DNA of 64,000 nt from Gammaproteobacteria bacterium (GCA_025355645.1 JANXZG010000048.1:1989-65988), one strand, 5' to 3'; positions 7,347-48,631 are shown, counted from the stretch's first letter. The notes: generated by a model not told the origin, from the letters alone. Numbers and translations are program-made.

Positions 7347-8226
7347 CGCGATTCCAATAGGCCGCCAGACGCTTGAGGCACTGCCTGACCGGTGCATAAC
7401 CTGACAAGGCAGACAGACGCACATGCATGGTGATGCCGCGCCGCATCGTCTGGACCAAGTGAAATAAGTCCAGGTACTGACCGCGGCGCTGCGTTGCGTG
7501 GGCGATTTTCAATGCATCGCACACGACCGCTACTGGCGTGCGATGGATTTTTGACGCCGCCGCGAACGGGTCGCATACGCTCGCACGAAAATTCGCGTCG
7601 CTGTTCAATATCCAGGTTGCCATGCGCTCGATGATGAAGATCTTCATCGGCGCCGATGCGCGCGCCCGATAGGGCACGGCTGCGCGCAGCTTCTCGCCAA
7701 GCGCGTCCCCCGGTTCTTCGGCGATCGCGAATAACGCCTCGTTGACCCTGAGCCACTCGCGCCAGAAACGCGGCCGGGCGACAAAGTAATTCGAGAACAC
7801 TTCTGTCCTCGAATCCGTCACCAGCTTGCCAAGGTCCACGGGAGCGCCAAGGCGCTGCAGGAATTCCTGCGCAACACCCAGAAGTCCCGGGTGCTTGGCC
7901 TCGCCATGCAAGAACACATTAGTATAGTAAGCGCTGTTGTGAATGCTCGGCGTCAGCGAGATGACATCGATCGAGGCATCGGCATCCCGAATCAGTGCCT
8001 CGACCTGGGCAGCTTCAAGGTTTGTCTTCTGCTTGAACTTCGGTGATAGAAAACCATAGAAGGCCTGCTCATCCAGGGACTCATTCAGCAGGAAATTGCG
8101 GATGGGCCAGTATTCGTACCAGTCGGGGCGCTGATTCGCCGTGTTATCGAGGACACGAAACCCAGGGTCCAGCGCCTGCCGCAGCGTGTAGAAATTCAGT
8201 ATCTGGTAGACAAATGCCTGCGGCAT
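7333..8226 (-). CDS. Hypothetical protein embedded in the polysaccharide operon
   Basis: Track ORF 7333..8322, trimmed to MPQAFVYQILNFY. Soluble, with no motif I recognise (..RPDWYEYWPIRNFLL..YGFLSPKFKQKT..). Coding-like composition. Confidence 0.55.
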   Translation of the reverse strand: MPQAFVYQILNFYTLRQALDPGFRVLDNTANQRPDWYEYWPIRNFLLNESLDEQAFYGFLSPKFKQKTNLEAAQVEALIRDADASIDVISLTPSIHNSAYYTNVFLHGEAKHPGLLGVAQEFLQRLGAPVDLGKLVTDSRTEVFSNYFVARPRFWREWLRVNEALFAIAEEPGDALGEKLRAAVPYRARASAPMKIFIIERMATWILNSDANFRASVCDPFAAASKIHRTPVAVVCDALKIAHATQRRGQYLDLFHLVQTMRRGITMHVRLSALSGYAPVRQCLKRLAAYWNRDERG

Positions 8227-8264
8227 GGCCAGAGAATACCCAAATACGCCGCAGCGCGCATTGG

Positions 8265-9314
8265 CTAAAACTTGCGCAGGCAGGCGCAGATCCCCTGAAG
8301 CGCAATCTCGATACCGTCGCACAGCTTCAGGTCAGCCGCGTGGCGCGCGAGGGCCTCGCGTCTGGGCTCATCGAGCCACAGCGAAAGCGCGGTATCCGCA
8401 ATCGCATCGGCCTCAAGCGGCGCATCGATCGTCACGCCCGACCTGAGGCAGCGGCGGATGCGTTCACGCTGGTCATTGGCGATTGCGACGGCCACACAAG
8501 CGCGCCCGCATGAGATTGCCTGTAGCAGCGTCGATCCACCGTTGACGACGATGAGTCGTGCGCTCCTAATCAGGGCGGCGAGTTGCGCCTGTGGCAGCGT
8601 TCCGAACGCCTGCAGATTCGCGAGCACGACGCCCTTGGCGTGCGGACCCACGTACATCGTTTGGACACCCTGGGATGCGAGGCGCGTCGCCGCCGCAAAA
8701 AACCTGGTTGCCGCATCCGCAGCACCCGGATGGCCCGTCCCACCGCCCGGCACCACCAGCGCGAACGGCGCCGCGTCGGTGGCTTGCGCGAGTGTTCCCG
8801 GAGTTAGAATGACGTCGAGGAAGCGCAGTCGCGGGCCGCCCCGCAGGGCGAGCTTTAGCTTCTCGATCGGCCCCAGAGCGCCTGCGATAAATTCGGGGTA
8901 GGCGATCCAGTGCTCATCGAGCATCCCCATCCAGCGCCAGCGAAATCCGCGGTTGCGCTGGCGGCGGCGCGAACTAATGTAAATCACGGCGGCACCCGAG
9001 GAGCGCGCTGCGCGCAGTTGCGCAGTGCGCCCCGCATTATCGAATATGACGATATCCGGGTGGAACTGGTGAATGCACGCAATGACCTCGGCGCTGTGAA
9101 ATGTCGGCGATGATGGCACGAAGGTATGTCCGAAGGGCGTCGTTGCCGAATAGGGGGCTTGCGCACTGAGGACGAAATGCACCTGCGCGTCGGGCCAGCG
9201 ATCCACGACCGCGTGCGCAATCGCGAGCGAGCGCGCGTATTCGCCCATGCCGTAGGCGCCTGATACGGGCACGAACAGCAGCCGCAGTTGACGGCGGGGC
9301 GCCTCGTCAGCCAA
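8265..9314 (-). CDS. Putative GT-B glycosyltransferase (MurG/GT28-like)
   Basis: N-terminal LRLLFVPVSGAYGMGEY and C-terminal VVNGGSTLLQAISCGRACVAV resemble GT28/GT1 nucleotide-sugar-binding halves. The start is uncertain; the proposed TTG at 9314 overlaps the asnB-like stop. Confidence 0.55.
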   Translation of the reverse strand: MADEAPRRQLRLLFVPVSGAYGMGEYARSLAIAHAVVDRWPDAQVHFVLSAQAPYSATTPFGHTFVPSSPTFHSAEVIACIHQFHPDIVIFDNAGRTAQLRAARSSGAAVIYISSRRRQRNRGFRWRWMGMLDEHWIAYPEFIAGALGPIEKLKLALRGGPRLRFLDVILTPGTLAQATDAAPFALVVPGGGTGHPGAADAATRFFAAATRLASQGVQTMYVGPHAKGVVLANLQAFGTLPQAQLAALIRSARLIVVNGGSTLLQAISCGRACVAVAIANDQRERIRRCLRSGVTIDAPLEADAIADTALSLWLDEPRREALARHAADLKLCDGIEIALQGICACLRKF

Positions 9315-11043
9315 AGGCGGTAAACCACCGGTCCAGCACAAGCAAGGACCAGGCCCGGCGAAAATCCGTACCGACGCCGCGCCGCAACACGCCACGCTCC
9401 CGCAGGCGACATACCGCATCGTTCAGGATCTGCGGATGACGGCGGATCCAAGCCCGCACGGGCAAACCGAAACCGGATTTCGCGCGATCCATGTGTCCGG
9501 ACGGCAGGCGCGGCGCAGCAAGTTCGCGGACCAGGACCTTGCCACGATGTCGCTGCCGATCGACCAGCAAACCTGGATCCACGCTCAGCATGAACTCGAC
9601 CAGGCGGTGATCAAGGAGCGGCGGACGCACCTCGAGTGAATGTGCCATGCTGGTGCGATCCACCTTGGTCAGCAGCCCCTCGGCCAAATCCGTGTTCAGG
9701 TCAAGCCAACGCAGCTGCACGAGCGGCGTCAGGTCCGCACGCCAAAACCTGCGGTAGAACCACAGGTAGTCGTAACCTGGCTCTTGCCACTCAGAGGCGA
9801 GCAGCGCGTCGACCTGCATGGCGTTCAAGCCCCCGAGCGACGCTGCAAATGCGGGCAGGCCGGAGTAGGCGCGGCTGCGCATCGACTGGCCGAGGCGCGA
9901 CAAGGGCGGCAGGAGCCCGGCCAGCGTGCGGTTGAACCAGGTGGAGCGCGCGCCGACATCGGACCAGTAGCGAGGATAGCCGCAGAATATTTCATCGCCG
10001 CCCTCGCCGCTCAGCGCCACCGTCACTTGCTGGCGCGCAAATTGCGCGACCAGGTAATTTGACCACGCCGCGCTGTCGCCAAAAGGTTCGTCGAACAGCT
10101 GCACAATCGCAGCGAGTGCTCCCTCGAAATCCGCCGCCTGCGCCATCATCTGCGTATGGCGGGTATGCAGGTGCACGGCGACCGCGCGGGCCGCGGCCGC
10201 TTCGGAGCGTTCGCGCGCTTCGAATCCCAGCGTAAAGGTTCGCGGCTGCTTCAGGTATGAAGCGGTCAGCGCCGAGTCAACGCCGCCGCTCAGGAACACG
10301 CCGACCGGAACATCCGCCAACGTCGTCTCCGGAATCACCCTGCCGAGGAGCTCATCGAGCGTCTCGCGCGTTGCATCCGCGTCGCGCGCGATAATTGCAG
10401 TGGCTGGATCCCAATAACGTTGCACGCGTACGCGCCCGTCCTGCCATATCAGCGTGTGTCCTGCCGGCAATTTCTCGATGCCGTGGTACATCGACTTGGG
10501 CGCAGGTATGTAGCCGTGGAACAGAAAATCGCGCACCGCGCTGTGATTGATCCGCGGCGCACCGAGCAGCAGCAACGCCTTCAGTTCCGAGGCAAATGCG
10601 ATTCCATCGGGCAGGATTTGGTAATAAAGTGGCTTGATACCAACCCGGTCGCGGGCCAGCAGCAGGCTACGCTCCCGATCGTTCCAGAGGGCAAACGCGA
10701 ACATGCCGATGAGCTGATTGATGCCCGCGATGCCATCGCGCGCAATCAGGCGCAATAGGACTTCGGTATCGCTGCTGGATCGCCAAGGACCGGGCAGCGT
10801 CGCGCGCAGCGCTTCATGGTTGTAGAGCTCGCCGTTATAGGTAAGGGCATACTCCCCCTGGAGCATCGGCTGGCGCGCGTTGTCCGAGAGGTCGATGATC
10901 GCGAGGCGCCGGTGCCCGAGCACCGCACCGCGCCCGCTCCATAGGCCCTCGCCGTCCGGTCCGCGATGGCGCAGCCGATCGGCCATCGCCCTGGCGAGCT
11001 CGGGGCTCGCCCTTGAACCGATGATGCCCACTATCCCGCACAT
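9307..11043 (-). CDS. Asparagine synthase (glutamine-hydrolysing) family amidotransferase
   Basis: Trimmed to MCGIVGIIG (N-terminal Cys nucleophile). PP-loop motif FLSGGVDSAL. Confidence 0.9.
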   Translation of the reverse strand: MCGIVGIIGSRASPELARAMADRLRHRGPDGEGLWSGRGAVLGHRRLAIIDLSDNARQPMLQGEYALTYNGELYNHEALRATLPGPWRSSSDTEVLLRLIARDGIAGINQLIGMFAFALWNDRERSLLLARDRVGIKPLYYQILPDGIAFASELKALLLLGAPRINHSAVRDFLFHGYIPAPKSMYHGIEKLPAGHTLIWQDGRVRVQRYWDPATAIIARDADATRETLDELLGRVIPETTLADVPVGVFLSGGVDSALTASYLKQPRTFTLGFEARERSEAAAARAVAVHLHTRHTQMMAQAADFEGALAAIVQLFDEPFGDSAAWSNYLVAQFARQQVTVALSGEGGDEIFCGYPRYWSDVGARSTWFNRTLAGLLPPLSRLGQSMRSRAYSGLPAFAASLGGLNAMQVDALLASEWQEPGYDYLWFYRRFWRADLTPLVQLRWLDLNTDLAEGLLTKVDRTSMAHSLEVRPPLLDHRLVEFMLSVDPGLLVDRQRHRGKVLVRELAAPRLPSGHMDRAKSGFGLPVRAWIRRHPQILNDAVCRLRERGVLRRGVGTDFRRAWSLLVLDRWFTAFG

Positions 11044-11144
11044 GGCGCGCAGTCTAGCGCGCCGCGACCTCTGTTGGTGATCCCAAAGGGCGACGCTAGC
11101 CATCGGGCGGCGGTTCGTTTAGGGTGTGCGCCGGAGCTCTGCAC

Positions 11145-11987
11145 ATGGCCACTACCCCTGCCGATCAACGTCTGACGGAACTGCTAGACCGCTGGCTGAC
11201 GAGCCTAGAGTTGCATCTTAAATATTCATCGCTGGACGAGGACACCTATTGGAAGGTGCAACCTTGGGTCGAACACCAGCGCCCCAGCCGCTGGATTGTC
11301 GACTTGGCCAAGCAAAAGACCGCGGCGCTCAAGGCGCAGGTCCAAGCGCGGGTCAAGGCGGGCGACGACGAGTTTTCGGACGCACTCGAACAGATGATGT
11401 TCCTTGCCAATCTCGTCGGCCTGCAGCACATCGAACGCTTCATTCCCGTGGCCGAGCCGAGTGCCGAGCTTGGCCGTGGCGACGCTGGCACATCTCTATC
11501 GGCAACCGCCAACCGCGAAATGCCAAGCTCTTCCACCTCCGCCAGCGGCACGCGTGAGATGCCGCGACCGTCCGTCGCGGCGACTGGTACGCGCGAGATG
11601 CCAAGGCTGTCCACTGGGACGAGTGGCACACGCGAGATGCCAAAGCCGCCGGCGCGCGCCGAACGCAAGAAAGCGCCCGCCAAGCTAGCGGCAAAAAAGC
11701 GTATTGAGCCTGTAACGCCTGCCCGAGCTGCCCCTGCGCGTACGGCGCCCGGACGCGTCGCGCCACCCGCCGCGCTGCCCGTCCCGCCACCGCCGGCAGC
11801 CGACGCCCAGCGCAAGCTGGTCATCGCAGATGCCGTACGTCTGCTGCAATGGGGCCGGCGCTGGTTCGAGCTGGCAGAGTTGATCGCCAGAATGGCCGAC
11901 CGACCGCCGGTGCGCACTGTCAGCCGCCTGCTGAATGAAAACCGGACACTGATCGAAACAAGCTTGGCGGAGTCAAAGTCCCGGTAG
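11145..11987 (+). CDS. Hypothetical protein with internal GTREMP tandem repeats and a Lys/Ala/Pro-rich segment
   Basis: Track ORF 11124..11987, with the first ATG at 11145. Structured N- and C-terminal parts flank a low-complexity core. Confidence 0.6.
   Translation: MATTPADQRLTELLDRWLTSLELHLKYSSLDEDTYWKVQPWVEHQRPSRWIVDLAKQKTAALKAQVQARVKAGDDEFSDALEQMMFLANLVGLQHIERFIPVAEPSAELGRGDAGTSLSATANREMPSSSTSASGTREMPRPSVAATGTREMPRLSTGTSGTREMPKPPARAERKKAPAKLAAKKRIEPVTPARAAPARTAPGRVAPPAALPVPPPPAADAQRKLVIADAVRLLQWGRRWFELAELIARMADRPPVRTVSRLLNENRTLIETSLAESKSR
11511..11648 (+). repeat. In-frame tandem repeat, 4 units of 36-39 bp encoding (N/G)(R/T)REMP(S/R/K)
   Basis: Units aaccgcgaaatgcc.. / ggcacgcgtgagatgcc.. 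/ ggtacgcgcgagatgcc.. / ggcacacgcgagatgcc.. read directly from the sequence. Confidence 0.85.
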
Positions 11988-12034
11988 CCGACACTCCGGG
12001 AACTTTGCCCGGCGCCTAACGCTCCAACGCGCGC

Positions 12035-12979
12035 ATGATCACCACCTCGCACCTATCCAAGAACTATGGCGGCAAGCTCGCGGTCAACGACCTGAGTTTT
12101 TCCGTCGCGCCTGGGGAGGTGCTGGGATTCCTGGGCGCCAATGGCGCGGGAAAATCGACGACGATGCGCATGATCGCAGGCTTCCTGTCGCCCTCGGCCG
12201 GCTCCGTGACGGTCTGTGGGCACGACGTCGAGCGCGCCCCGGTTGCCGCAAAATCCCGTATGGGATACCTGCCCGAGGGCGCGCCGAGTTACGGCGAGAT
12301 GACTGTCACCGAGTTCATTGATTTTGTATCGGACATTCGCGCACTGCGTGGCGCGCGGCGCCGCGAGCGGCGCGTGTTTGTGATCGAGCGGTTGGAGCTC
12401 GGTCCCGTGCAGGGCCAGGTCATAGAGACCTTGTCGAAGGGATTTCGCCGCCGTGTGGGTCTCGCGCAGGCGCTGATCCATGACCCGGAGGTGCTTATCC
12501 TGGATGAGCCCACCGACGGCCTTGACCCCAATCAGAAGCATGAGGTACGCCGGCTGATCAATGAGCTGAGCCGGGAAAAACTCGTGATCGTCTCGACGCA
12601 CATCCTCGAGGAGGTGCATGAGGTCTGCACGCGCGCGATCATCATTGCGGCAGGTCGCATAGTCGCCGATGAGAGTCCGGCTCAGCTCGAGGCGCGTTCG
12701 CGTTACCACAGGGCTGTCAGCATGCGCTTCCTGCATGCAACAGAGCTTGCTGTGGCGGCCGCACAGCTCGCCATGCTGGACGTAATTGACTCCGTTGAGA
12801 CCGACCCGCGCACGATGCGCCTGACCGCATTTCCAAAAGCCGGTGCGGCCGCTTTACCAGCAGTCGGCGCGATGGTCGTCAAGGCGGACTGGGACGTGCC
12901 GGAGCTGCATCTTGAATCCGGACGGCTCGATGAAGTGTTTCGCGCATTGACGCAGGGCGCGGGCCCCGTGCCGCCATGA
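12035..12979 (+). CDS. ABC transporter ATP-binding protein (ABC-2 / GldA-like)
   Basis: Walker A GANGAGKST, signature LSKGFRRRV, Walker B LILDEPT. Confidence 0.9.
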   Translation: MITTSHLSKNYGGKLAVNDLSFSVAPGEVLGFLGANGAGKSTTMRMIAGFLSPSAGSVTVCGHDVERAPVAAKSRMGYLPEGAPSYGEMTVTEFIDFVSDIRALRGARRRERRVFVIERLELGPVQGQVIETLSKGFRRRVGLAQALIHDPEVLILDEPTDGLDPNQKHEVRRLINELSREKLVIVSTHILEEVHEVCTRAIIIAAGRIVADESPAQLEARSRYHRAVSMRFLHATELAVAAAQLAMLDVIDSVETDPRTMRLTAFPKAGAAALPAVGAMVVKADWDVPELHLESGRLDEVFRALTQGAGPVPP

Positions 12980-13710
12980 ACAAAGTCGCGGTGATTTTCC
13001 GGCGCGAGCTCACAAGCTACTTCGCGACACCGCTCGCCTATGTGTTTATTGTGATCTTCCTGCTGCTGACGGCGGTATTTACCTTCCAGATCGGGGGATT
13101 CCTGGAGCGGGGTCAGGCCGACCTGCAGGCCTTCTTCCGCTGGCATCCGTGGATTTACCTCGTGCTGATCCCGGCGATCTCGATGCGACTGTGGGCCGAG
13201 GAGCGCAACAGCGGCAGCATCGAGCTGCTGATGACGCTGCCCATCGAACTATGGCAGGCGGTGGCCGGTAAGTTCCTGGCCGCCTGGGTCTTCGCCGGCA
13301 TTGCGCTCGCGCTGACCTTCCCAGTTTGGGTGACCGTGAACTATTTGGGCCACCCCGACAATGGCGTGATCATCGCTGCCTATCTCGGTAGCTGGATGAT
13401 GGCGGGCGGGTTTCTCGCGATCGGCATGTGCCTCTCCGCTGCGACGCGCAATCAGGTCATTGCTTTCATCACCGCGGCCCTCGTCGGCTTCGTGTTCCTG
13501 CTGGCCGGGTTTCCGCTGGTGCTTGACCTCGTGCGCGGCGTGTTGCCTGAGCAGATCGTCGAAGCCATCGCTTCTTTGAGTTTCCTGACGCACTTCGAGG
13601 CCATCTCAAAGGGTGTAATTGACCTTCGCGATGTCGTGTACTTCATCGCGCTGACCGCCTTCTGGCTGATGGCCACCGCGCTCGTTCTCGACATGAAGAA
13701 GGCGCAGTGA
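12976..13710 (+). CDS. ABC-2 type transporter permease (GldF-like)
   Basis: Six-TM hydrophobic protein. ATGA overlap with the ATPase gene. Confidence 0.8.
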   Translation: MNKVAVIFRRELTSYFATPLAYVFIVIFLLLTAVFTFQIGGFLERGQADLQAFFRWHPWIYLVLIPAISMRLWAEERNSGSIELLMTLPIELWQAVAGKFLAAWVFAGIALALTFPVWVTVNYLGHPDNGVIIAAYLGSWMMAGGFLAIGMCLSAATRNQVIAFITAALVGFVFLLAGFPLVLDLVRGVLPEQIVEAIASLSFLTHFEAISKGVIDLRDVVYFIALTAFWLMATALVLDMKKAQ

Positions 13711-15602
13711 GCATGCCGGGACCGCGCTGGCAGAAATTCACGTTTGGCGCCGGCGGACTGATCGCCCTGGCGGTATTGTTCCTCGGAATCGTCATGCTCT
13801 CGGGCCTGTTGCTGCGTGGCGTGCGCCTCGACCTCACCCAGAACCGTCTATACACCTTGAGCTCTGGGACCAAGCAGGTACTCGCTGATCTCAAGGATAA
13901 GGAGCCGATCAACCTGTATTTTTACTTCTCGCGCGAAAGCGCGGGCATTCATGCTCCCCTGCTGCTGCCGTATGCGACACATGTGCGCGAATTTCTCGAG
14001 GAGCTCGCCGCGCGCTCGCGCGGGCGCGTGCGCCTGCACGTGGTCGACCCGCAGCCCTTCAGTGATGAGGAGGATCGTGCGGCGACCCTCGGCCTGCAGG
14101 CCCTGCCATCGGGCGCCGGCGGCGAGTCGCTGTACTTTGGCCTGGCCGGCACCAACTCGACCGATGGCCGTGCGGCGATTCCATCGTTGCAGCCGGAACG
14201 CGAGCAATTCCTGGAGTACGACGTAGCCAAGCTCATCCAGGAGCTCGGCACGCCGAAGCGCCCGGTGGTCGGCTTGATGACTGCGCTGCACATGCAGGGT
14301 GAGATGGATCCGATGACGGGCCAGCCGGGCGAGCCATGGCCGATTGTCGGGCAGCTGGGCGAGCTCTTCACGCTGCGCTCGGTGGGCACCGAAGTGGACC
14401 GCATTGATACCGATGTCGACGTGCTGATGCTGGTGCACCCGAAGAACCTGCCCTCGCAGACTCTTTATGCAATCGATCAGTTCATCCTGCGGGGGGGCAG
14501 GATGCTGCTGCTGCTGGACCCTGCCTCGGGCGCGGAGTCGAACGGATCAGGCCCGGGCGGTGCCTCGGACCTGCAGCCGCTGCTGCAGGCCTGGGGCGTC
14601 GATTACGATTCGCACCTGGTCATCGGCGACCTGGAGCGGGGGCTCGAGGTGCGCACCAGCATGGACGCGCCGCCGATCCGTCACATTGGGATTCTCGGGC
14701 TGCACCGCGAGGACATCGATACCGCCGATGTCGTCACCTCATCGCTCGAGAGTATCAACCTTGCGACCGCGGGGTTCGTCGCACCGCATCCCGGGGCGAA
14801 GACGAGCTTCCGCCCGCTATTATCGAGTTCGGCCGCGGCCGCGCCGATCCCGGCGCAGCGCTTTGCAAGCTTGCTGGACCTTGCGACCCTTCGGGATGGT
14901 TTCAAGCCCACCGGAAAACGCTATGCGCTGGCCGCACGCGTGACCGGCCCCGTCGAGTCCGCCTACCCTTTGGGACCGCCCGCTGGCGCCAAGCCGCCGG
15001 CCGGCCCCCCTGCGGCGCATCTGGCCAGATCGGCCGGATCGATCAACATCGTGATTTTGGCTGATACCGACATGTTGCTGGACTACATGTGGGTACAGAC
15101 CCGAGAGTTATTTGGCCAGCGGGTATCGCAGGCGTTCGCGGGCAACGGGGATCTGATCGCCAACGTGCTCGATAATCTTTCCGGCAGCCCCGCTCTGATT
15201 GCAATTCGCGGGCGTGCGAGTTTTTCGCGGCCGTTCGAGCGTATCGAGGCATTGAAACGGCGCGCCGATGACCGGCTGCGCGCCAAGGCGCAGGAGCTGG
15301 AGACCGAGCTGCGCCAAACGGAAGGGAAACTGGCCGAATTGCAGACGCAGCGGGCGGACCAGAACTCGGTGGCGCTCTCTGCCGACCAGGAGCGTGAACT
15401 GCAGCGCTTCACGGCCGAGAAGCTGCGCGTACGCCGCGAACTGCGCGAGACCGAGCACGGCCTCAATGTCGACATTGATCGCCTCGATGCCTGGCTCAAG
15501 TTCCTGAATATGGCCCTCGCGCCAATTCTGGTCAGCGTCGCCGGCACCCTCATGCTGATCTGGCGGCGTCGCCGGCGCCAGTCGCCGCCGCGCCCGACGT
15601 GA
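13707..15602 (+). CDS. ABC transporter auxiliary component (GldG-like, COG3225-type)
   Basis: N-terminal and C-terminal TM anchors flank a large periplasmic domain, with a coiled-coil near the C-terminus. GTGA overlap with the permease gene (alternative ATG at 13713). Confidence 0.7.
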   Translation: MSMPGPRWQKFTFGAGGLIALAVLFLGIVMLSGLLLRGVRLDLTQNRLYTLSSGTKQVLADLKDKEPINLYFYFSRESAGIHAPLLLPYATHVREFLEELAARSRGRVRLHVVDPQPFSDEEDRAATLGLQALPSGAGGESLYFGLAGTNSTDGRAAIPSLQPEREQFLEYDVAKLIQELGTPKRPVVGLMTALHMQGEMDPMTGQPGEPWPIVGQLGELFTLRSVGTEVDRIDTDVDVLMLVHPKNLPSQTLYAIDQFILRGGRMLLLLDPASGAESNGSGPGGASDLQPLLQAWGVDYDSHLVIGDLERGLEVRTSMDAPPIRHIGILGLHREDIDTADVVTSSLESINLATAGFVAPHPGAKTSFRPLLSSSAAAAPIPAQRFASLLDLATLRDGFKPTGKRYALAARVTGPVESAYPLGPPAGAKPPAGPPAAHLARSAGSINIVILADTDMLLDYMWVQTRELFGQRVSQAFAGNGDLIANVLDNLSGSPALIAIRGRASFSRPFERIEALKRRADDRLRAKAQELETELRQTEGKLAELQTQRADQNSVALSADQERELQRFTAEKLRVRRELRETEHGLNVDIDRLDAWLKFLNMALAPILVSVAGTLMLIWRRRRRQSPPRPT

Positions 15603-39577: not shown

Positions 39578-40744
39578 TCAGGCCTTGGGCAGCGTGACTC
39601 CCAGCTGTCCCTGATATTTGCCGCCGCGATCCTTATAAGAGGTCTCGCAGACCTCGTCCGATTCGAAAAACAGCATCTGTGCGACGCCTTCATTCGCATA
39701 GATTCGCGCCGGCAGCGTCGTCGTGTTGGAAAATTCCAGCGTGACGTGCCCTTCCCACTCCGGTTCCAGCGGCGTTACGTTGACTATAATTCCGCAGTTC
39801 TTTACGAAGATGCCGGCCTGCAAAGCGAAGTTGCCGGCTTCGGGCACCGTAAGGCAATAAACATCATGATGGCCTGGCACCTCGCGCACTGCTGCGACCT
39901 TGTGATTGCGATACGCGGGCGCACTTCCAGCCGGTGGGTTATATCGGCGCTCCGAAACCCCATGGTGGACGTGCATCCCGGCAGCATCGTCTGAAATTTT
40001 ATGGTTTGTATTCCATTCACCAGCCAGGCGACGCGTGGGATATAAATCCCCGTCGTGCGGCTGATATACCGATTCGTACCCCTCGATTAGTTCCCGGTAT
40101 AACGGCATCAGAGCATCGCGCGGACGAAGCGTGTGCGCTGCCGACATGCACCCATCGCGCCTCATGAATAAGTGGTCGGAGGTTGCGTGGATGCGCTGGC
40201 CGTCGTCAAGCTCGATCTCCAATAGGGCGTCCCGTCCGATGAGCCGTGGCTGATCCAGCAAGCTAACAATTACGCGGCCGTTTTGACCGATGCTATAGCC
40301 CCAAAACGACTCACCGGAATCATGCCGCCGCGCCATTTGCTCGAGAGTCGGTGCGGTCCCATCGACCAAGGCGACGCGAGTGTCGCCACGGAAGCAACGT
40401 GCATAAGTTGATTTTCCGAGGCAAACCGTCAGCACACTGCGTGGAATGCGAAAGAATTCCACGGTCCTCGCAAGCGCGAACGAATTCGGCGGGATGATGC
40501 ACATCGGGCCCTTGAAATCGACGAATGACTTTTCATCGAAGTTCTTCGGATCGACGATCGTCGAATTGATGTTCGTGAAGATCTTGAACTCCTCGGCGCA
40601 CCTGACATCGTAGCCGTAGCTCGACGTGCCGTAGGAGACGATCTTGTGGCCGCCGGCCGTGCGGACCTGCGTCGGGGAAAATGGCTCGATCATGCGCTGC
40701 TCGTTGGCCATGCGACGGATCCAGCGGTCGCTCTTGATGCTCAT
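39578..40744 (-). CDS. dcd: dCTP deaminase interrupted by an in-frame intein (precursor 388 aa, predicted mature Dcd 188 aa)
   Basis: N-extein is residues 1-116 ([13 protein letters not shown]...CLGKSTYAR) and C-extein is residues 317-388 ([43 protein letters not shown]...[12 protein letters not shown]). Joined together they reproduce a full-length Pseudomonas/Xanthomonas-type Dcd. Confidence 0.93.
39797..40396 (-). mobile_element. Intein (200 aa, Cys1 ... Asn200, Cys+1) within dcd
   Basis: Block [14 protein letters not shown], block [11 protein letters not shown] (TxxH), block [27 protein letters not shown], followed by Cys+1. The boundary codons were checked on the sequence: tgc at 40396-40394, aac at 39799-39797, tgc at 39796-39794. 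Confidence 0.85.
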
Positions 40745-41844
40745 CAGGTGGATTCCACGGTGATCTTAGGAAACATCCGGCTGTAATCCTTGTTCAACGT
40801 TGCGAGCCGCGCGGCCGTGCGTCTGGCCATCGCAAAATACGCCCGCGCGCGCGCGCTCTTTGGGTCTGCGACGACGGTCGGCGTACCGCCGTCAGCCTCC
40901 TCGCGAATCCGGATGTCGAGCGGTAGCTGGCCGAGCAGTTGCACGCCGTACTGCTCCGCCATGCGCGCCCCGCCGCCGCTGCCGAAGACATGTTCGGCAT
41001 GCCCGCAATTCGTGCAGATGTGCACGCTCATGTTCTCAACGATGCCGAGTACCCTGACCTCAACCTTTTCGAACATCTTGAGGCCCCTGCGCGCATCCAG
41101 GAGCGCGATGTCCTGCGGCGTCGTGACGATCACGGCGCCACTGACCGGCACACGCTGGGACAGCGTCAGCTGAATATCGCCGGTGCCCGGCGGCATATCG
41201 ATGACCAGATAGTCAAGCTCGCCCCAGTCGGTGTCAGAGAGAAGCTGGGTTAGTGCCTGTGTGGCCATTGGCCCGCGCCACACCATCGGTTGTTCCTGAT
41301 CAACCAGAAACCCGATGGAATTGACGGCGACGCCATGAGCGCGCAGCGGCGTGATGCGTTTGCCGTCGATCGACGTTGGTTTCTTGCCGGTCAGTCCCAT
41401 CAGCAGCGGCTGGCTCGGTCCGTAGATATCTGCGTCGAGCAATCCGACCCTCGCACCCTGCGCCGCCCACGCCAAAGCGAGGTTGGCGGCGGTGGTCGAC
41501 TTGCCGACCCCGCCCTTGCCGGAAGCGACGGCCACGATGTTCTTTACGTTGTCGAGCGGCTTCAGTGCCCTTTGCACGGCATGCGCCGCTATTTCTGTGC
41601 GCAATATCACACTCAATACGACGTTATTGAGTGCCGGCGCAAGGTAGGCCTGTAGGGCCGGCAGCAGCTCCTCGTTATAATCCGAGCAAGGAAAACCGTA
41701 GGTCAGTTCCACGGTCAGGACACCCTCGCGCCGGGCAATGGCGCCGATGGCCCGGGCCTCGCCAAGCGTCTGGCCAAGGTAGGGATCGTGGTAGTCACTC
41801 AATCTTGCGCGGGCGATAGCCGGCGCATCGATAATGTTGCTCAT
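40744..41844 (-). CDS. apbC: Fe-S cluster carrier ATPase ApbC/Mrp
   Basis: Trimmed to [10 protein letters not shown]. Deviant Walker [19 protein letters not shown] and the CTNCGH cluster-ligand motif. The stop overlaps the dcd ATG by 1 nt. Confidence 0.93.
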
Positions 41845-41889: not shown

Positions 41890-41898
41890 TGGCATAAT
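41890..41898 (+). promoter_or_regulatory. Extended -10-like element TGGCATAAT upstream of the kinase gene
   Basis: Matches TGnTATAAT at 8 of 9 positions. Lies 29 nt upstream of the ATG at 41927. The identical decamer TGGCATAATT recurs at 46569. Confidence 0.35.
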
Positions 41899-41926
41899 TA
41901 AGAGTCCATTTCGAGCAGGGCGCCGA

Positions 41927-44314
41927 ATGAGTTTTATTTCGAATTTCCGGGCAGATCGGCTGATCGCTGAAATTAAATCGGGCGGCAACCCGACGGGCCC
42001 GGTCGCGCAAAAAGCACTGACACGCCTGGCCGCGATCGGCCCAAGCGCGATCGCACCGATTGTCGATGCCCTGCAGAGCGCGGACAAGCACGAGATGATG
42101 GCTTACGTCGAAGTGCTCGCTAAGTTAGTGGACGCCAAGAGCGTGCCGCTTCTACTTACGATGCTGGCTCAGCATAAGGGCCGCGCGGCCGCGGGTATCT
42201 CCTGGGCGCTGTCCTCGAGCAATGGCTATCCACCGACCCTGCTTCTCGAAGCTCTCGGCCGGCCCGGCAGCCCTAAACCAGCCATCCTCGACATCATCCT
42301 GGCGCAAAAAGCCCGCTACAACGTGCGCGACCTGTTGAACAGCGCCTTCAATGCGGAGGCCAGCGAACGCATCGGCTTGTTCCGGATCATCGGCGAAGTC
42401 GCCGACGACTCCTCGATCGATGATTTGCTACTGCGCGTCGACACCCACGATCCAATCGCCCGAGTGCAGATCATCAACCTGCTGGCACGATTCAACACCC
42501 CGCGGGTCACCCAGGCACTGCAAAAGCAACTGGCCGACAAGAGCAAGTTTGTGCGCGCCGCGAGCCTGCTTGCGCTTGGCAAGATGGATGGCCCGTTCGA
42601 CATTAAAATGCTCTGCGGCATGCTGCGCGACCCCGAATTCGACGTGCAGAACAAGGTGGTTGACCTGGTCGTGAAGGTCAACGATCCGGAAACGGTCAAG
42701 TACCTCGTCGATGTGCTGAAGGACGAAAATGAATACGCCCGGCGCGCCGCTGTCGAGGTCCTGAACCATGTGGGTGATTCGAAATCGGTCAAGTACCTGC
42801 TCGAGGTCATCGCCGACAGCGACTGGTGGGTCAGGACCCGTGCGGCCGACGCGCTCGGCAAGATCGGCGGACCGCGCGTCGTCGAGGCGGTCCTTGAGCT
42901 GATCCGGGACGAGAACCAGGACGTGCGCCGCGCCGCGATCGAGATACTGAACCAGACCAAGGATGACCGCGCGGTCGCGCAGCTGATCGAAGCCACCAAG
43001 GATTCGGACTGGTGGGTCAGCGAGCGCGCGGTGGATGCGCTAGCGGAGATCGGCAGCGACAAAGCCGTGCCGCGCCTGAAAGCGATGCTCGGCACGAGCG
43101 AGGCGAAGTCCCTGCCCACCGTCATCCGCGCGCTCGGCAAGATCGGCAATTACGAACTGATCGACAACCTGCTGGTCATGCTGCAGCGGCCGGAAAGCGC
43201 CATTCGCGTAGAGGCGATCCAGGCGCTTGCCAAGATCACCGATGAGAGGCGTGCCGATACGGTGCGCATGCGCTTTCAGTCCATACCGAGCGCGAACGAC
43301 ACCGCGGTCAGTCTTGCAATCCGCAGCGCCAATGAAGCGATGGACAACCGCTTCTCGACACAGCAGATCGCCGCCAACAAGCTTGCGCAAAAGATGCAGG
43401 AGCCCTCCCATACACTGCTTGCCGACAGCGCCAATGTGGCGGAAGTCGTCAAGCAGCAGGAAGAGCAGGTCGCGAAGCTCGACATTGGCACGATGCAGCC
43501 GGGCGATATCCTCGAGGGTCGCTATAAGTTCATCGAGAAAATCGGCAAGGGCGCCTTCGGCACCGTGCTGCTGATGGAGGATACGATCGTCGATGAGCGC
43601 CTGATTCTGAAATTTTTGAACCCGAACGTCTCGACCGACGAGGAGATGATGAAGCGCTTCGTGCATGAATTGCGCTACAGCCGCAAGATTACGCACAAGA
43701 ACGTCATCCGCATCTATGACTTCCTGTACATTCGTGGCAACTACGCGATCTCGATGGAGTATTTCCCCTCGCATACGCTCGGTGCGGAGATCGTCAACGA
43801 GAAGCCGGTCGACATCAAGAAGGCGGTCCGCTTCGGCATGGACATCGCGACCGGTATGGCCGTCGCCCACCAGGTAGGGATCGTGCATCGCGACCTGAAG
43901 CCCGCGAACGTGCTGATCGACAACGGCGGCCTGCTGAAGATCGTGGACTTCGGCGTTGCGGCCGCACATACCCAGGGCGACACGCAGCTGACCAAGACCG
44001 GCTACGTCATTGGCTCGCCCAAATACATGGCGCCCGAGCAGATCCTTGGCAAGAAAGTCGACGAGCGGGCCGACATCTATAGCCTCGGAATCATCCTGTA
44101 TGAGCTTTTATGCGGCGTCCCCCCGTACCTGCGTGGCGATCATATGTCCGTCATGTACCAACACGTGCAGGGCAAGGCGCGACCGCCGATCGATCTCAAT
44201 AAGAACCTGCCGCAGGGCCTGAACGACCTGGTGGTCAAGTGCCTGTCCCTAGACAAGTCCAAGCGGGTCCAGACGATGGATGATCTGCGCCTGAAGCTCG
44301 AAGCGTTCCTTTAG
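41927..44314 (+). CDS. HEAT-repeat protein with a C-terminal Hanks-type Ser/Thr kinase domain (795 aa)
   Basis: Trimmed to MSFISNF. Repeated DSDWWVRxRAADALGKIG / DVRRAAIEIL HEAT (PBS-lyase type) units are followed by GKGAFGTVLL, LILKFL, HRDLKPANVLI, DFGVA and SPKYMAPEQ. Confidence 0.9.
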   Translation: MSFISNFRADRLIAEIKSGGNPTGPVAQKALTRLAAIGPSAIAPIVDALQSADKHEMMAYVEVLAKLVDAKSVPLLLTMLAQHKGRAAAGISWALSSSNGYPPTLLLEALGRPGSPKPAILDIILAQKARYNVRDLLNSAFNAEASERIGLFRIIGEVADDSSIDDLLLRVDTHDPIARVQIINLLARFNTPRVTQALQKQLADKSKFVRAASLLALGKMDGPFDIKMLCGMLRDPEFDVQNKVVDLVVKVNDPETVKYLVDVLKDENEYARRAAVEVLNHVGDSKSVKYLLEVIADSDWWVRTRAADALGKIGGPRVVEAVLELIRDENQDVRRAAIEILNQTKDDRAVAQLIEATKDSDWWVSERAVDALAEIGSDKAVPRLKAMLGTSEAKSLPTVIRALGKIGNYELIDNLLVMLQRPESAIRVEAIQALAKITDERRADTVRMRFQSIPSANDTAVSLAIRSANEAMDNRFSTQQIAANKLAQKMQEPSHTLLADSANVAEVVKQQEEQVAKLDIGTMQPGDILEGRYKFIEKIGKGAFGTVLLMEDTIVDERLILKFLNPNVSTDEEMMKRFVHELRYSRKITHKNVIRIYDFLYIRGNYAISMEYFPSHTLGAEIVNEKPVDIKKAVRFGMDIATGMAVAHQVGIVHRDLKPANVLIDNGGLLKIVDFGVAAAHTQGDTQLTKTGYVIGSPKYMAPEQILGKKVDERADIYSLGIILYELLCGVPPYLRGDHMSVMYQHVQGKARPPIDLNKNLPQGLNDLVVKCLSLDKSKRVQTMDDLRLKLEAFL
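42011..43243 (+). other. HEAT/PBS-lyase-like repeat region of the kinase protein
   Basis: About 8-10 helical repeats. Boundaries are approximate, taken from the translation. Confidence 0.6.
43520..44299 (+). other. Protein kinase catalytic domain
   Basis: All Hanks subdomain signatures are present: G-loop, catalytic Lys, HRDLKPxN, DFG, APE. Confidence 0.85.
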
Positions 44315-44395
44315 ATGCGACTCCCATCACGATTATCCGAATAGGACCGGAAAAAAGCTCGAAAAACCGGCAGCTTGCAGGTAGCCTTGCGCATT

Positions 44396-45487
44396 ATGGC
44401 AAGAATCGACTCGTTCCTTAAGCTGGGTCTGGCACAGGGTTGTTCTGACATGCACCTCGCGGTCGGCATACCGCCCATGCTGCGTATGCAGGGGGACCTG
44501 GTGCCGATCAAATTTCGCGACTTGGCGCAGAGTGAGCTCGAGTCCTACATCACTGAAGTGCTGAGCCCGGCCCAGATCAAGATCCTCGAATCCGGCAACG
44601 ACCTCGATTTCTCCTATGTCTCCTCGGAAGGCGGCCGCTTTCGCGTCAACGTGTTCCGAAAAGAGACGGGCATCGGGGCGGCGTTTCGCGCGATCCCGAG
44701 CAAGATGCCGAGCCTCGATGAACTCGCGCTGCCGCCGATTGTAAAAAAGCTCTGCGACTACCACCAGGGCATGATCCTCGTAACCGGCTCGACCGGAACG
44801 GGCAAGTCGACGACGCTCGCGGCGATGATTGATCATCTGAATACCACCCGTTCGCTGAATATCATCAGCCTCGAGGATCCGATCGAGTTCGTTCACCGCA
44901 GCAAATCCAGCCAGGTGATCCAGCGCGAACTTCATACCCACCTGCCCTCCTTCGCCGAAGGCGTGCGTGCGGCGATGCGCGAAGACCCGGACGTGATTCT
45001 GGTGGGCGAAATGCGCGATGCCGCGACGATTTCCATGGCGATGACGGCAGCCGAGACTGGACACCTGGTGCTAGGCACGCTGCATACGACCAGCGCCAAC
45101 AAGACCATCGACCGCCTGATCGACGCGCTGCCGACCGAGGAGCGCGAACAGACCAAGAGCTTCATGGCACAGAGCCTGCTTGCCGTGATCACCCAGGTGC
45201 TGGTCAAGACTCCGGATTTGCGGGCAAGGCGCGCGGTATGCGAGGTCCTCGTTGTCAGCAAGGCAGTCGCCAAGTTGATCCAGACAGACCAGACGCACCA
45301 GATTCCAAGCCAAATGCTGATGGGCAAGGACTATGGCATGCAATTGATGGATGCCGCGCTGATGCAAGCGGTGACCGACAAGCAGATCGACCCCGAGGAC
45401 GCCTATGGCTACGCGCTCGACAAGCGCCCGTTCGAGCGCCTGACCACCCACGCATCGGGCGCCTCCAGCTCTTCCTCCGGTACATGA
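44396..45487 (+). CDS. PilT-family (type IV pilus retraction-type) ATPase, divergent paralog
   Basis: Trimmed to MARIDSFLKLGLAQGCSDMHL. Walker A GSTGTGKSTT, LEDPIEF, Walker B ILVGEMRD, and His box GHLVLGTLHT. The AIRNLIRE region has diverged to AVAKLIQT. Ser-rich C-terminal tail. Confidence 0.85.
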   Translation: MARIDSFLKLGLAQGCSDMHLAVGIPPMLRMQGDLVPIKFRDLAQSELESYITEVLSPAQIKILESGNDLDFSYVSSEGGRFRVNVFRKETGIGAAFRAIPSKMPSLDELALPPIVKKLCDYHQGMILVTGSTGTGKSTTLAAMIDHLNTTRSLNIISLEDPIEFVHRSKSSQVIQRELHTHLPSFAEGVRAAMREDPDVILVGEMRDAATISMAMTAAETGHLVLGTLHTTSANKTIDRLIDALPTEEREQTKSFMAQSLLAVITQVLVKTPDLRARRAVCEVLVVSKAVAKLIQTDQTHQIPSQMLMGKDYGMQLMDAALMQAVTDKQIDPEDAYGYALDKRPFERLTTHASGASSSSSGT

Positions 45488-45494
45488 GCGCACG

Positions 45495-46556
45495 ATGGCG
45501 GCAATCGACAAGTACCTGACCGACGTGTTCGAGCGCAAAGGCTCGGACCTGCATTTCCTGGCCGGGGATCCGGCGCGCATCAGGCTGTACGGGGAGATCA
45601 AGCCGCTCAGCGCCGAAGTTCTAGCGGCCGATAGTGTCAAGACGGCGCTTTACGAGATCATGCCCAAGATCGCCTTGGAACGCTTCGAGGCCAAGGACGG
45701 GACCGATTTTGCCTACAACCTGGCGGGCGTTGCCCGCTTTCGGGTCAACGTCATGCGCCACCTGAACGGCATGGGCGCTGTATTCCGGACCATCCCGTCA
45801 AAGGCACAGTCGATGGACGAACTTGACCTTCCATCGGCTGTGCGCAGCCTGACCGACGTGAACAGTGGACTGATACTTGTGACGGGCAAGACCGGTTCCG
45901 GCAAGTCGACGACGCTTGCTGCCCTGATCGACGATCTGAACACAAGGCTCAAGGGCCACATCCTGACCATCGAGGATCCGATCGAGTTCGTGCACGTACG
46001 CAAAAGTTGCCTGATCAGCCAGCGCGAAATTGGCGTCCATGCACCGAATTTTTCCTCCGCCCTGCTCTCCGCCCTGCGCGAGGACCCCGATGTGATCTTG
46101 GTCGGCGAGTTGCGCGACCTCGAGACCATGAGCATCGCGGTCACCGCAGCGGAAATGGGCATCCTGGTGCTGGGAACGCTGCATACCAATGGCGCTGCGG
46201 CCACGGTTGATCGCATGGTCAATGCGTTCCCCGCGGACAAGCAGGGCCCGGTGCGCACCATGCTCTCGACCAGCCTGCGAGGGGTCGTCAGCCAGCAGCT
46301 GATCCCGACCGCGGGCAAGGCCGGCCGCGTTGCCGCCATGGAAATCCTGGTCAATACCCCGGCGGTCGCCAATCTGATCCGCCAGGGAAAAATGGACCAG
46401 CTGGAAAATGCCATGATGACGGGGTCCGCCGTCGGCATGCGCACGATGGACACCGCCATAGGAGCGCTGCTCGACCGGCGCATCATCAGCGGCAAGAGCG
46501 CATTCCAGAAGGCCATCAACAAGGCCAAGTTCGAGCAGTACCGCAACGACACTTGA
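45495..46556 (+). CDS. PilT-family twitching-motility ATPase
   Basis: Colinear with P. aeruginosa PilT as I remember it (FRTIPSK.., GKTGSGKSTT, TIEDPIEFVH, ILVGELRD, TPAVANLIRQGK). 353 aa. Confidence 0.88.
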   Translation: MAAIDKYLTDVFERKGSDLHFLAGDPARIRLYGEIKPLSAEVLAADSVKTALYEIMPKIALERFEAKDGTDFAYNLAGVARFRVNVMRHLNGMGAVFRTIPSKAQSMDELDLPSAVRSLTDVNSGLILVTGKTGSGKSTTLAALIDDLNTRLKGHILTIEDPIEFVHVRKSCLISQREIGVHAPNFSSALLSALREDPDVILVGELRDLETMSIAVTAAEMGILVLGTLHTNGAAATVDRMVNAFPADKQGPVRTMLSTSLRGVVSQQLIPTAGKAGRVAAMEILVNTPAVANLIRQGKMDQLENAMMTGSAVGMRTMDTAIGALLDRRIISGKSAFQKAINKAKFEQYRNDT

Positions 46557-46568
46557 AGGCGGGTCGCA

Positions 46569-46577
46569 TGGCATAAT
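46569..46577 (+). promoter_or_regulatory. Extended -10-like element TGGCATAAT, 8 nt upstream of the metG ATG
   Basis: The sequence reads TGGCATAAT-TTGCGGCT-ATG. No SD is present, and an in-frame TAA (46574-46576) excludes any upstream start. Confidence 0.35.
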
Positions 46578-46585
46578 TTGCGGCT

Positions 46586-48631
46586 ATGAAGCCGCACCGC
46601 CGAATCCTGGTCACCAGCGCCCTGCCCTACGCCAACGGGCCGATTCACCTTGGCTACCTGCTCGAGGCCATACAGACTGACATCTGGGTGCGGTTCCAGA
46701 GACTGCGCGGCAACGAATGCCTGTATGTCTGCGCCGACGACACGCACGGCACGCCGATCATGTTGAAGGCCCAGGCGGAGGGCATCAGCCCCGAGCAACT
46801 GATCGAACAGGTCAACGTCGAACACCGGCGCGATCTGGCCGACATGCTGATATCGCTCGACAATTTCGGCTCGACCCATTCCGCGGAGAACAAGGTGCTG
46901 TGCGAGCGCCTGTACATCGCGCTGCGCGAGGCCGGGCATATCGAGCGACGCACGATCCGCCAAGCCTATGACGCGGTCGCGAACATGTTCCTGCCTGATC
47001 GCTACGTCAAGGGAACCTGCCCGAATTGCGCAACACCGGGCCAGTACGGGGATTCCTGTGAGGCCTGCGGAGCGACCTACACGCCGGCGGACCTCAAGGA
47101 TCCAATATCCGTGGTCAGTGGTACGAGGCCCATCGAGCGAGAGTCCGAGCATTATTTCTTCCGCCTGAGCAAGTTCGATGCGGACCTGCGCAGCTGGATT
47201 ACCGAGGGCGCGGTCCAGGAAAGCGTCGCTCGCAAACTTGAGGAGTGGTTCTCGCAGGGCTTGCGCGACTGGGATATCTCGCGCGATGCGCCCTACTTTG
47301 GTTTCGAGATTCCGGGCGCCCCGGGCAAGTATTTCTACGTCTGGTTCGATGCGCCGATTGGATACCTTGCGAGCTTCACGCAGCTTTGCGAACGGATCGG
47401 TGTCAGGTTCGACGATTTCTTCGCCGCCGGCGCGAGCACCGAGCTTCATCACTTCATCGGCAAGGACATCCTGTATTTTCACACGTTATTCTGGCCTGCC
47501 GTGTTGCAAGGCGCCGGCTTGCGCCGCCCTACCGCGGTTCATGCGCACGGCTTCGTGACGATAAACGGACAAAAGATGTCCAAATCGCGCGGCACCTTCA
47601 TCACTGCGCGCCGCTACCTCGACAGCTTTTCGCCCGAGTACCTGCGCTATTATTTCGCCGCGAAGCTCGGTCCCGGCATCGAGGATCTCGACATGAACCT
47701 CGAGGAGTTCACGGCACGCCTGAACTCGGACATCGTCGGCAAGCTCGTGAACATCGCGAGCCGCTGCGCCGGATTCATCAGCAAAAGTTCCGGAGGCAAG
47801 CTAGCCGCGAGCCTTGCGGATCGCGATCTTTTTGCCGCGTTCACGGCACGCGCGGAGCAAATTGGCGCCGCCTATGAGTCGCTCGATTACGCCGGCGCTA
47901 TCCGGGAAATCATGGCGCTCGCTGATCGCGCCAATCAGTACATAGACCAGCGCAAGCCATGGATGCTTGCGAAGAACTCCGAAAACGCGGCCGAGGTACA
48001 GGCGATATGTACGCAGGGACTCAACTTCTTTCGCACGCTGATGATTTACCTCTCGCCCGTGCTGCCCGTCATGGCGGCCAAGTCCGCGCTGTTTTTTGGC
48101 GAGGCGCCGTGGTGTTGGAGCACGGCCGGCACGCCGCTGCTCGGGACGACCATCCAACCGTACGAAGCGCTGGCGAGTCGCCTCGATATGAAGGCCGTGG
48201 CGGGCCTCATTGAGCCGGCCGCAGCGGAGATTGCGGCACCTGTGACGGCGGCGCCTAGGGCGGCGGCGCCTGGGGCGGTGGCGCCAGGGGCAGCGGCGCC
48301 TGCGATGATCTCGATCGAGGATTTCGCCCGTATCGACTTACGCGTGGCCAAAATCCTATCGGCGGAACTGATTCCCGGTGCAGACAAGCTCCTGAAATTG
48401 CGCGTCGACCTCGGTGAGCAGGGCGAGCGAGATCTGTTTGCCGGCATTCGGGCTGCTTACGATCCTGCGAACCTGGTCGGACGTCTAACGGTCGTGGTCG
48501 CGAACTTGCAGCCGCGCAAGATGCGTTTCGGCACCTCGGCCGGCATGGTGCTCGCGGCGGGCCCCGGTGGAAAGGATATTTTCCTGCTGTCGCCGGATTC
48601 GGGCGCGGCACCCGGGATGCGCGTGAAGTGA
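46586..48631 (+). CDS. metG: Methionine--tRNA ligase with a C-terminal tRNA-binding (Trbp111/EMAP-like) domain
   Basis: [13 protein letters not shown] (HIGH), zinc knuckle [27 protein letters not shown]-terminal [27 protein letters not shown]. Confidence 0.97.
48248..48304 (+). repeat. 15-bp in-frame tandem repeat (about 3.8 units) encoding [19 protein letters not shown] in the metG interdomain linker
   Basis: gcggcgcctagggcg / gcggcgcctggggcg / gtggcgccaggggca / gcggcgcctgcg read directly from the sequence. Confidence 0.85.

Follow-up and report, generated by a model that had tools for sequence, protein, structure and literature searches.

What brings a Ser/Thr protein kinase gene and two genes for PilT-type motors together between two housekeeping genes, and what would their products do together? 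This question is raised by a 64,000-nucleotide (nt) stretch of DNA from a gammaproteobacterium (GCA_025355645.1, JANXZG010000048.1:1989-65988), which we call the window. Its positions 41927-46556 encode a kinase with a HEAT-repeat solenoid and two ATPases of the PilT family, designated T1 and T2 here, and the three genes are flanked by apbC and metG. A preliminary description, made from the DNA sequence alone, had reported three co-oriented genes between apbC and metG, with gaps of 81 nt between the kinase gene and T1, 7 nt between T1 and T2, and 29 nt between T2 and metG; the list of open reading frames and the sequence agree with this. The three genes, hereafter the trio, are as follows.

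41927..44314, + strand: kinase gene, 795 amino acids (aa); open reading frame with HEAT_2 and Pkinase domains
44396..45487, + strand: T1, first PilT-family ATPase, 363 aa; ATG selected to match the N-termini of the orthologues (MARID...)
45495..46556, + strand: T2, second PilT-family ATPase, 353 aa

Our analysis indicates that the kinase, T1 and T2 very probably form one functional unit. As to its task, we give a probability of roughly one half to the reading that the trio is a phosphothreonine-coupled accessory motor pair acting on a type IVa pilus machine encoded elsewhere in the genome. This reading is proposed because an active-looking kinase is strictly coupled to two active-looking PilT-type motors, and because the trio is recurrently linked to genes for FHA-domain proteins, the potential readers of phosphothreonine, and for a PP2C phosphatase, the potential eraser.

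Conservation and Distribution of the Trio

A sample of 400 Gammaproteobacteria genomes was scored with strong matches to the HEAT arm of the kinase and with a T1-specific threshold (E ≤ 1e-115). T1 was found in 50 genomes, all of them among the 51 that have the kinase and together spanning 41 genera, and the kinase gene and T1 were on one contig within about 3 kb of each other in 46 of these 50. The preliminary description had proposed co-occurrence across genomes as a check, and the association is indeed conserved, with the kinase present in every genome that has T1. Three of the four non-adjacent cases were fragmented assemblies, and the fourth, G235, was truly split, with the kinase gene beside rpsF and T1-T2 on a different contig. 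The sole kinase-only genome, G435, has the HEAT part alone left, the kinase domain, T1 and T2 being gone, and this appears to be a co-decay of the module. Its locus (L134, G435:C1:1488000-1505000, 10165-11982, minus strand) belongs to a one-contig genome of 2.5 Mb that keeps the HEAT part, the small upstream protein described below, pilB, pilT, and pilU. The sampled genomes are related, so these counts show co-inheritance and co-loss and are not an independent statistical test. In a phylum-wide draw of 400 genomes, no HEAT-arm match was found beyond the genome of the window.

The host is Steroidobacterales-like, and Steroidobacterales is the order meant throughout. Within the genus, 22 of the 24 genomes sampled had the kinase orthologue, either in full or truncated at a contig end, and the two exceptions are 81% and 58% complete; beyond the genus, the orthologue was found in 16 other families of the order, in one genome per family. 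The arrangement apbC-kinase-T1-T2-metG was observed in all five same-genus loci and all ten other-family loci with contigs extending past the kinase gene, and the longer dcd-apbC-kinase-T1-T2-metG-rnfB arrangement is kept across the order where contigs allow. Because the gene order is maintained throughout the examined genomes of the order, the comparison indicates that the trio is not a recent insertion; as judged from these sequences, it is a single-copy, vertically inherited core locus among housekeeping genes, not an island. In other orders, the order and strand of kinase-T1-T2 were kept in 17 of the 19 fetched loci, with different flanks from which apbC and metG were absent. Since the trio persists there without these neighbours, the flanks are specific to the order, and what is conserved as a unit is the trio. 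Exact protein look-up identified cultured carriers as well, i.e., Inmirania thermothiophila, Acidihalobacter prosperus, and A. yilgarnensis.

The Kinase

The kinase is divided into three parts.

41927..43354, + strand: N-terminal HEAT/PBS-lyase-type alpha-solenoid, aa 1-476, about 15 helical hairpins (Pfam HEAT_2, 2.3e-57)
43355..43516, + strand: linker, aa 477-530, poorly conserved, probably disordered (14% identity to the other-order orthologues)
43517..44314, + strand: C-terminal Hanks-type Ser/Thr kinase domain, aa 531-795 (Pkinase, 1.2e-52)

All the hallmarks of a Hanks-type Ser/Thr kinase were found in the catalytic domain: the G-loop (GKGAFG), the catalytic Lys (in LILKF), HRDLKPAN, DFG, and the APE motif (SPKYMAPE), and these were invariant across 13 kinase orthologues. 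Identity to the other-order orthologues was 53% in the kinase domain and 38% in the HEAT arm, besides the value given for the linker. In the AlphaFold 2 model, the solenoid is all-helical, with a per-residue confidence (pLDDT) of 84-92 over most of aa 10-460, and the linker falls below 50 for aa 480-515; the placement of the solenoid relative to the kinase domain is undefined, with a predicted template modelling score (pTM) of 0.48. Foldseek matched the solenoid to alphaRep HEAT-like repeat proteins and gave the Mycobacterium tuberculosis PknB kinase domain as the nearest solved fold of the catalytic part, at 32% identity. The score against the PknB_PASTA model was 268 bits vs. a cut-off of 450. 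The solenoid is the sole other domain of the protein, which has no sensor domain besides, and its fold class suggests a protein-binding scaffold. The kinase, T1, and T2 all lack hydrophobic segments of membrane-span length, and on this basis, the three proteins are predicted to be soluble and cytoplasmic.

A distant HEAT-kinase paralogue of 802 aa, with 22-28% identity, is encoded in another genome just downstream of clpB (L138, G192:C28, 8108-10516, minus strand). No PilT genes are found near it, and therefore the HEAT-kinase architecture occurs outside the trio too.

The Two ATPases

Both ATPases scored above the curated cut-off of 319.1 bits of the family model (NCBIfam TIGR01420, pilT_fam), with 409.1 bits for T1 and 422.8 bits for T2, and the closest solved structure for each was P. 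aeruginosa PilT (3JVU). In the clan consensus of both, the Lys of Walker A, the Glu of Walker B, and the Asp box are retained, as is the second His of the His box, the residue in contact with the gamma-phosphate. The Walker A consensus is GxTGTGKST in T1 and GKTGSGKST in T2. T1 keeps both His residues of the His box; in T2, the first is changed to Ile clan-wide, and the equivalent of H229 is kept. E204 and H229 have been reported as essential in P. aeruginosa PilT (bioRxiv 10.1101/672212). The AIRNLIRE region is lost in T1, which reads AVAKLIQTDQ, and partly kept in T2, which reads AVANLIRQGK. The T1 clan is further characterized by a conserved QGCSD near the N-terminus and by a C-terminal tail with the motif F(Q/E)RFVTDxxLLP, in which the T position is Thr or Ser in 29 of 30 T1 sequences. 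This motif is missing from PilT and T2, and T2 has no tail extension.

The maximum-likelihood tree was built with 80 PilT-family proteins from the carriers and one Myxococcaceae genome. It recovered a T1 clan (support 100/100) and a T2 clan (100/99) as sisters (97/85), along with a PilT clan comprising the genes next to yggS (100/100) and a PilU clan (100/97), each excluding T1 and T2. Moreover, the T1 extension differs in sequence from the PilU-type C-terminal extension. Branching within the T1 and T2 clans was broadly parallel, as expected if the pair was inherited together. These data suggest that T1 and T2 are the product of an old duplication and distinct from canonical PilT and PilU; by this placement, they are members of the broad PilT/PilU family that stand outside both orthologue groups.

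The host assembly (3.88 Mb, 172 contigs, 99% complete) contains five pilT_fam genes. Three of them are in tandem on contig C156 by yggS-proC, and these are the canonical pilT-pilU pair and a third, PilU-like paralogue. The tandem occupies 6477-9765 on the minus strand of L140 (G000:C156:18000-34000). The third paralogue forms its own PilU-like clan in the tree and was also observed in G032, G190, and G403. Further pilus and secretion genes were located on other contigs: C150 carries pilB-pilC, C10 carries pilM and pilQ, and C6 carries genes for type II secretion; none was found on the contig of the window, pilins not having been searched for. With the same restriction on pilins, the type IVa pilus gene set is complete elsewhere in the genome. 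Canonical pilT-pilU was also present in all 11 carriers checked, and T1 and T2 are extra paralogues, not the only retraction ATPases of the cell. The preliminary description had stated that the trio lies away from other type IV pilus genes and from the yggS/proC context, and had asked where the pair falls relative to bona fide PilT and PilU and whether these are encoded elsewhere; the first statement holds, and both questions are answered by the separate, supported clans and by the genes on C156.

Genes Accompanying the Trio in Other Orders

The open reading frames flanking the 19 other-order loci were clustered and then analyzed with Pfam and tblastn, and the counts below are for the 17 of these loci in which the trio is present.

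Directly upstream of the kinase gene, same strand: small protein of 150-200 aa, 15/17 loci
Directly after T2: FHA-domain gene, 13/17 loci (8 encoding about 224 aa, 5 a fusion of class III cyclase and FHA)
Adjacent to the trio: PP2C phosphatase gene, 5/17 loci
Adjacent to the trio: FHA-GAF-HD gene, 5/17 loci

The small upstream protein (L128:11204-11671, minus strand, and 14 other loci) was modelled by AlphaFold 2 with a pLDDT of 91 as two tandem Sm/SH3-like barrels. It gave a weak match to DUF6812, and no relative was found in the PDB (best E value, 0.07). The only lead in the Atlas was to DUF6982, a domain that occurs in GspE-type ATPases as a fusion with PilZ, MshEN, or PatA_N. The Atlas matches to the C-terminal half of the FHA protein were all unnamed clusters.

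In the genome of the window, contig C145 carries a second Hanks kinase of 443 aa, a PP2C, and a 242-aa FHA protein (L139, G000:C145:38000-56000, 7195-10117, + strand) in the local order radA / kinase-PP2C-FHA / alr dnaB. The PP2C and the FHA protein of this cluster are the closest homologues that the genome has for the trio-flanking genes of other orders. A homologue of the cyclase-FHA fusion is encoded on contig C56. The trio had been described as a self-contained module; it is conserved as a unit, as this implies, and it is outside the order that self-containment gives way, since an FHA gene, the small protein, and sometimes a PP2C accompany it there.

Flanking Genes and Putative Promoters

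The genes and elements that border the trio are listed below.

40744..41844, minus strand: apbC/mrp, Fe-S carrier P-loop NTPase (Pfam ParA/NUBPL, 5.9e-102); divergent upstream flank, outside the module
41890..41899, + strand: TGGCATAATT box, first copy, similar to an extended -10 element and 27 nt ahead of the kinase ATG; putative promoter for the three genes
46569..46578, + strand: TGGCATAATT box, second, identical copy, 7 nt before the metG ATG
46586..48631, + strand: metG, methionyl-tRNA synthetase (Pfam tRNA-synt_1g, 1.1e-148); downstream flank, outside the module

The apbC boundary that had been described before is sustained, with the true ATG read from the sequence at 41844. Downstream of metG are rnfB and then nth, and the base composition of the trio region is nothing unusual. 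A consensus scan for + strand terminator-like sites between the genes and for promoter-like sites in the intergenic gaps returned none of either. The TGGCATAATT box recurs before the kinase gene and/or metG across many genomes of the order, and the two copies in the window are putative promoter elements of the trio and of metG, as we infer from their position and sequence. Thus, metG probably has a promoter of its own, and because the box is so near its ATG, the metG mRNA may be leaderless. Two other explanations of the repeated box were rejected: a target-site duplication, because relatives of the order also have the -10-like box ahead of the kinase gene, metG, or both, and a genome-wide motif, because 14 copies vs. 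about 12 expected represent no enrichment. Two public sequencing runs were considered as evidence of co-transcription and set aside as uninformative; they come from a strain about 96% identical, consist of contigs with an unspecified kind of library and records of up to 88 kb, and are probably DNA.

Next to apbC, the dCTP deaminase gene (39578-40744, minus strand) is interrupted by an intein of roughly 200 aa (aa 133-316; Pfam Intein_splicing). This is missing from the orthologues in other families of the order, and same-genus relatives have insertions of variable size at the same site.

A Proposed Phosphothreonine-Coupled Motor Pair and Its Alternatives

In the proposed motor pair, we infer that the proteins touch, which of them is phosphorylated, that the pair acts on pili, and which way control runs. 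By analogy with the stacked PilC-PilT-PilU arrangement, T2, which is AIRNLIRE-like and tail-less, would be the ring adjoining the machine, and T1, which is tailed and has lost AIRNLIRE, would be the PilU-like distal ring. The HEAT arm would dock the kinase on the ATPases, and the kinase would write phosphothreonine marks, the conserved Thr/Ser of the T1 tail being the leading candidate site; FHA-domain proteins would read these marks, and the PP2C phosphatase would erase them. The T1-tail Thr is put forward as candidate phosphosite and FHA docking point because the C-terminus of PilU binds PilT in the stacked motor (bioRxiv 10.1101/2025.10.30.685630) and T1 has a tail.

Several observations weigh against this proposal. 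The single tie between T1/T2 and a pilus machine is family membership, and no pilus gene was adjacent to the trio in any locus examined. Co-occurrence with pilB was considered as a test of a pilus role and discarded as uninformative, since pilB is above the cut-off in 269 of the 400 genomes; the carriers with no strong pilB match were fragmented assemblies or had a truncated match at a contig end. The small upstream protein was not found in the genome of the window by a hidden Markov model search of the six frames, and only 1 of 61 genomes of the order had it; likewise, FHA and PP2C genes are unlinked to the trio in this genome. As the small protein is missing and the FHA and PP2C homologues are on other contigs, the Steroidobacterales trio is a reduced core, whose readers and eraser, if they serve the trio at all, would be encoded elsewhere. 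In addition, a signalling output would account for the FHA-cyclase and FHA-GAF-HD neighbours seen in other orders no less well than motor control does. Finally, the T1 of the window ends (45434-45487, + strand) in LTTH and a Ser-rich stretch instead of FVTD..LLP, and same-genus relatives keep FVTD. A frameshift was rejected as the cause, since the DNA alignment shows in-frame substitutions, and the altered tail of this genome may reflect relaxed constraint on the proposed phospho-tail or a lineage-specific change of it.

Among the alternatives, a reversed flow of information is possible, and we rate it as the less probable direction. Here, T1 and T2 would be the input, reporting motor engagement or load at the pilus or another platform, the HEAT kinase would be the transmitter, and its phosphothreonine marks would bring in the FHA effectors (FHA-cyclase, FHA-GAF-HD, and the 224-aa FHA protein), which would turn the signal into a cyclic-nucleotide output, with no control of retraction. 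This agrees with a kinase that has a HEAT scaffold and no other potential sensor domain, with the commonest trio neighbours in other orders being FHA effectors, with cyclase or GAF-HD domains among them, and with a cyclase-FHA homologue kept in the genome of the window. There is also a precedent, in which PilT is placed within the surface sensing that raises cyclic AMP in P. aeruginosa (PMC10187167). However, in the order, the trio is found with no linked effector, the enzymatic activity of the FHA-linked domains is a prediction, and the direction of signalling is not something that sequence can give.

A role outside the pilus is unlikely in our view, and somewhat more so than the reversed flow. 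T1 and T2 would then be a kinase-controlled hexameric ATPase working on another substrate or platform, for instance a different T2SSF-type platform or a cytoplasmic client, as DotB-type or other PilT-like traffic ATPases do. The isolation of the trio from pilus genes in every locus is in line with this, and so are the loss of AIRNLIRE in T1, the clan-wide His-to-Ile change in the T2 His box, and vertical inheritance among housekeeping genes. Furthermore, canonical PilT and PilU are co-present in every carrier checked and hence not being replaced, and G435 has pilB, pilT, and pilU with no module. On the other hand, T1 and T2 are well above the PilT/PilU family cut-off and have P. aeruginosa PilT as closest solved structure, and no alternative partner machine was linked to the trio in any examined locus.

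An extended version, which we offer as a tentative and rather doubtful idea, would make the trio a two-ring motor that is switched by phosphorylation, also acts as a sensor, and links pilus-motor activity to cyclic-nucleotide levels. In it, the HEAT arm would keep the kinase on a stacked T2-T1 double hexamer, motor engagement would govern phosphorylation of the conserved T1-tail Thr, and the FHA effectors (FHA-cyclase, FHA-GAF-HD, and the 224-aa FHA protein) would dock on this mark.

Two further explanations are highly improbable. An anti-phage defence built on a Hanks kinase, like PD-T4-6, MADS Mad6, or BREX PglW, is suggested by the PADLOC models PD-T4-6 and mad6, which match the kinase; however, the matches are limited to the generic kinase domain, the NCBIfam defence models are far below their cut-offs (MAD6, 155 bits vs. 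460; PglW, 97 vs. 990), no partner genes of the PD-T4-6, MADS, or BREX systems are present beside the kinase, the ATPases have no meaningful defence-model match, and the locus is a single-copy, vertically inherited core locus of ordinary base composition, not an island. A chance neighbourhood of ordinary pilT/pilU-type genes and an unrelated kinase would suit the public annotation, which names T1 and T2 merely as PilT or PilT/PilU family ATPases, but it is contradicted by the co-occurrence in 50 of 50 genomes and adjacency in 46 across 41 genera with changing flanks, by the decay of the kinase together with the loss of T1 and T2 in one lineage, and by T1 and T2 forming clans apart from PilT and PilU.

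Comparison with Known Systems

The nearest relative of the ATPase pair is PilT-PilU of P. aeruginosa, V. cholerae, and A. baylyi. Both are two adjacent, co-oriented genes for PilT-family hexameric ATPases, and the division of features is similar, with T2 keeping a PilT-like AIRNLIRE region and T1 lacking it and having, as PilU does, a family-specific C-terminal extension. Unlike PilT-PilU, T1 and T2 fall in separate clans, coexist with the canonical pair away from yggS-proC, are strictly coupled to a Hanks kinase gene, and are in reverse order, the PilU-like copy T1 being the first; T2 also lacks the first His-box histidine.

A kinase acting on a hexameric-ATPase machine is found in the threonine phosphorylation pathway of the type VI secretion system (T6SS), which consists of the PpkA kinase, the PppA PP2C phosphatase, and Fha1 (PMC5995506). 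This pathway shares with the trio the linkage of a Hanks kinase, PP2C, and FHA to such a machine, in the case of the trio in part of the other-order loci, and it provides a model for post-translational on/off control. In contrast, T6SS genes are absent here, the trio kinase is predicted to be soluble with a HEAT arm and is not a membrane receptor kinase, its ATPases are of the PilT family and not ClpV, and neither FHA nor PP2C is adjacent to the trio in the window. Similarly, PknB, which has the nearest solved kinase fold at the identity given above, acts via an FHA-domain substrate and has been crystallised with it (GarA; 6I2P), but PknB sits in the membrane and has PASTA sensors outside the cell, whereas the kinase domain of the trio is C-terminal to a HEAT solenoid predicted to be cytoplasmic. 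Based on the T6SS pathway and PknB-GarA, a kinase/FHA/PP2C logic exists around other machines.

In Myxococcus, MXAN_6705 and MXAN_6706 are conserved tandem extra PilT paralogues beside canonical PilT, and their deletion leads to partial motility defects (J Bacteriol 2026, PMC13584747). Like T1 and T2, they are a tandem pair of extra paralogues in a genome with canonical PilT. We rejected them as the same module, since no HEAT kinase was present within 9 kb in the Myxococcaceae genome and tree affinity was weak; identity to T1 and T2 is 38-48%, and only one member groups with T2, weakly (92/60) and on a long branch. The Myxococcaceae locus (L168, G439:C1:7496000-7515000, 8872-14789, + strand) has the MXAN_6705/6706-like pair followed by a 1001-aa TPR solenoid protein, a loose parallel to the trio.

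No description of a Hanks kinase in linkage with PilT paralogues came up in full-text searches of the literature. The trio is a real and widespread module, unstudied as far as we could find, in which known parts are brought together in a new combination.

Significance

How type IV pili switch and coordinate their retraction ATPases is still an open question, and what extra PilT paralogues do is mostly unknown. The trio offers a distinct, strictly conserved paralogue pair with a dedicated Ser/Thr kinase, accompanied by FHA readers in many lineages and by a PP2C eraser in some, and its carriers range from soil Steroidobacterales to cultured Acidihalobacter and Inmirania. The motor-pair reading makes three predictions, i.e., phosphorylation of the T1-tail Thr, stacking of T1 on T2, and docking by the HEAT arm. 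The sensor version, if true, would give many environmental Gammaproteobacteria a Hanks-kinase equivalent of Pil-Chp surface sensing. If the link to the pilus is true, the trio would be the first case of Hanks-kinase control, or read-out, of bacterial pilus motors; if it is false, a PilT-type motor would have been recruited to a new task.

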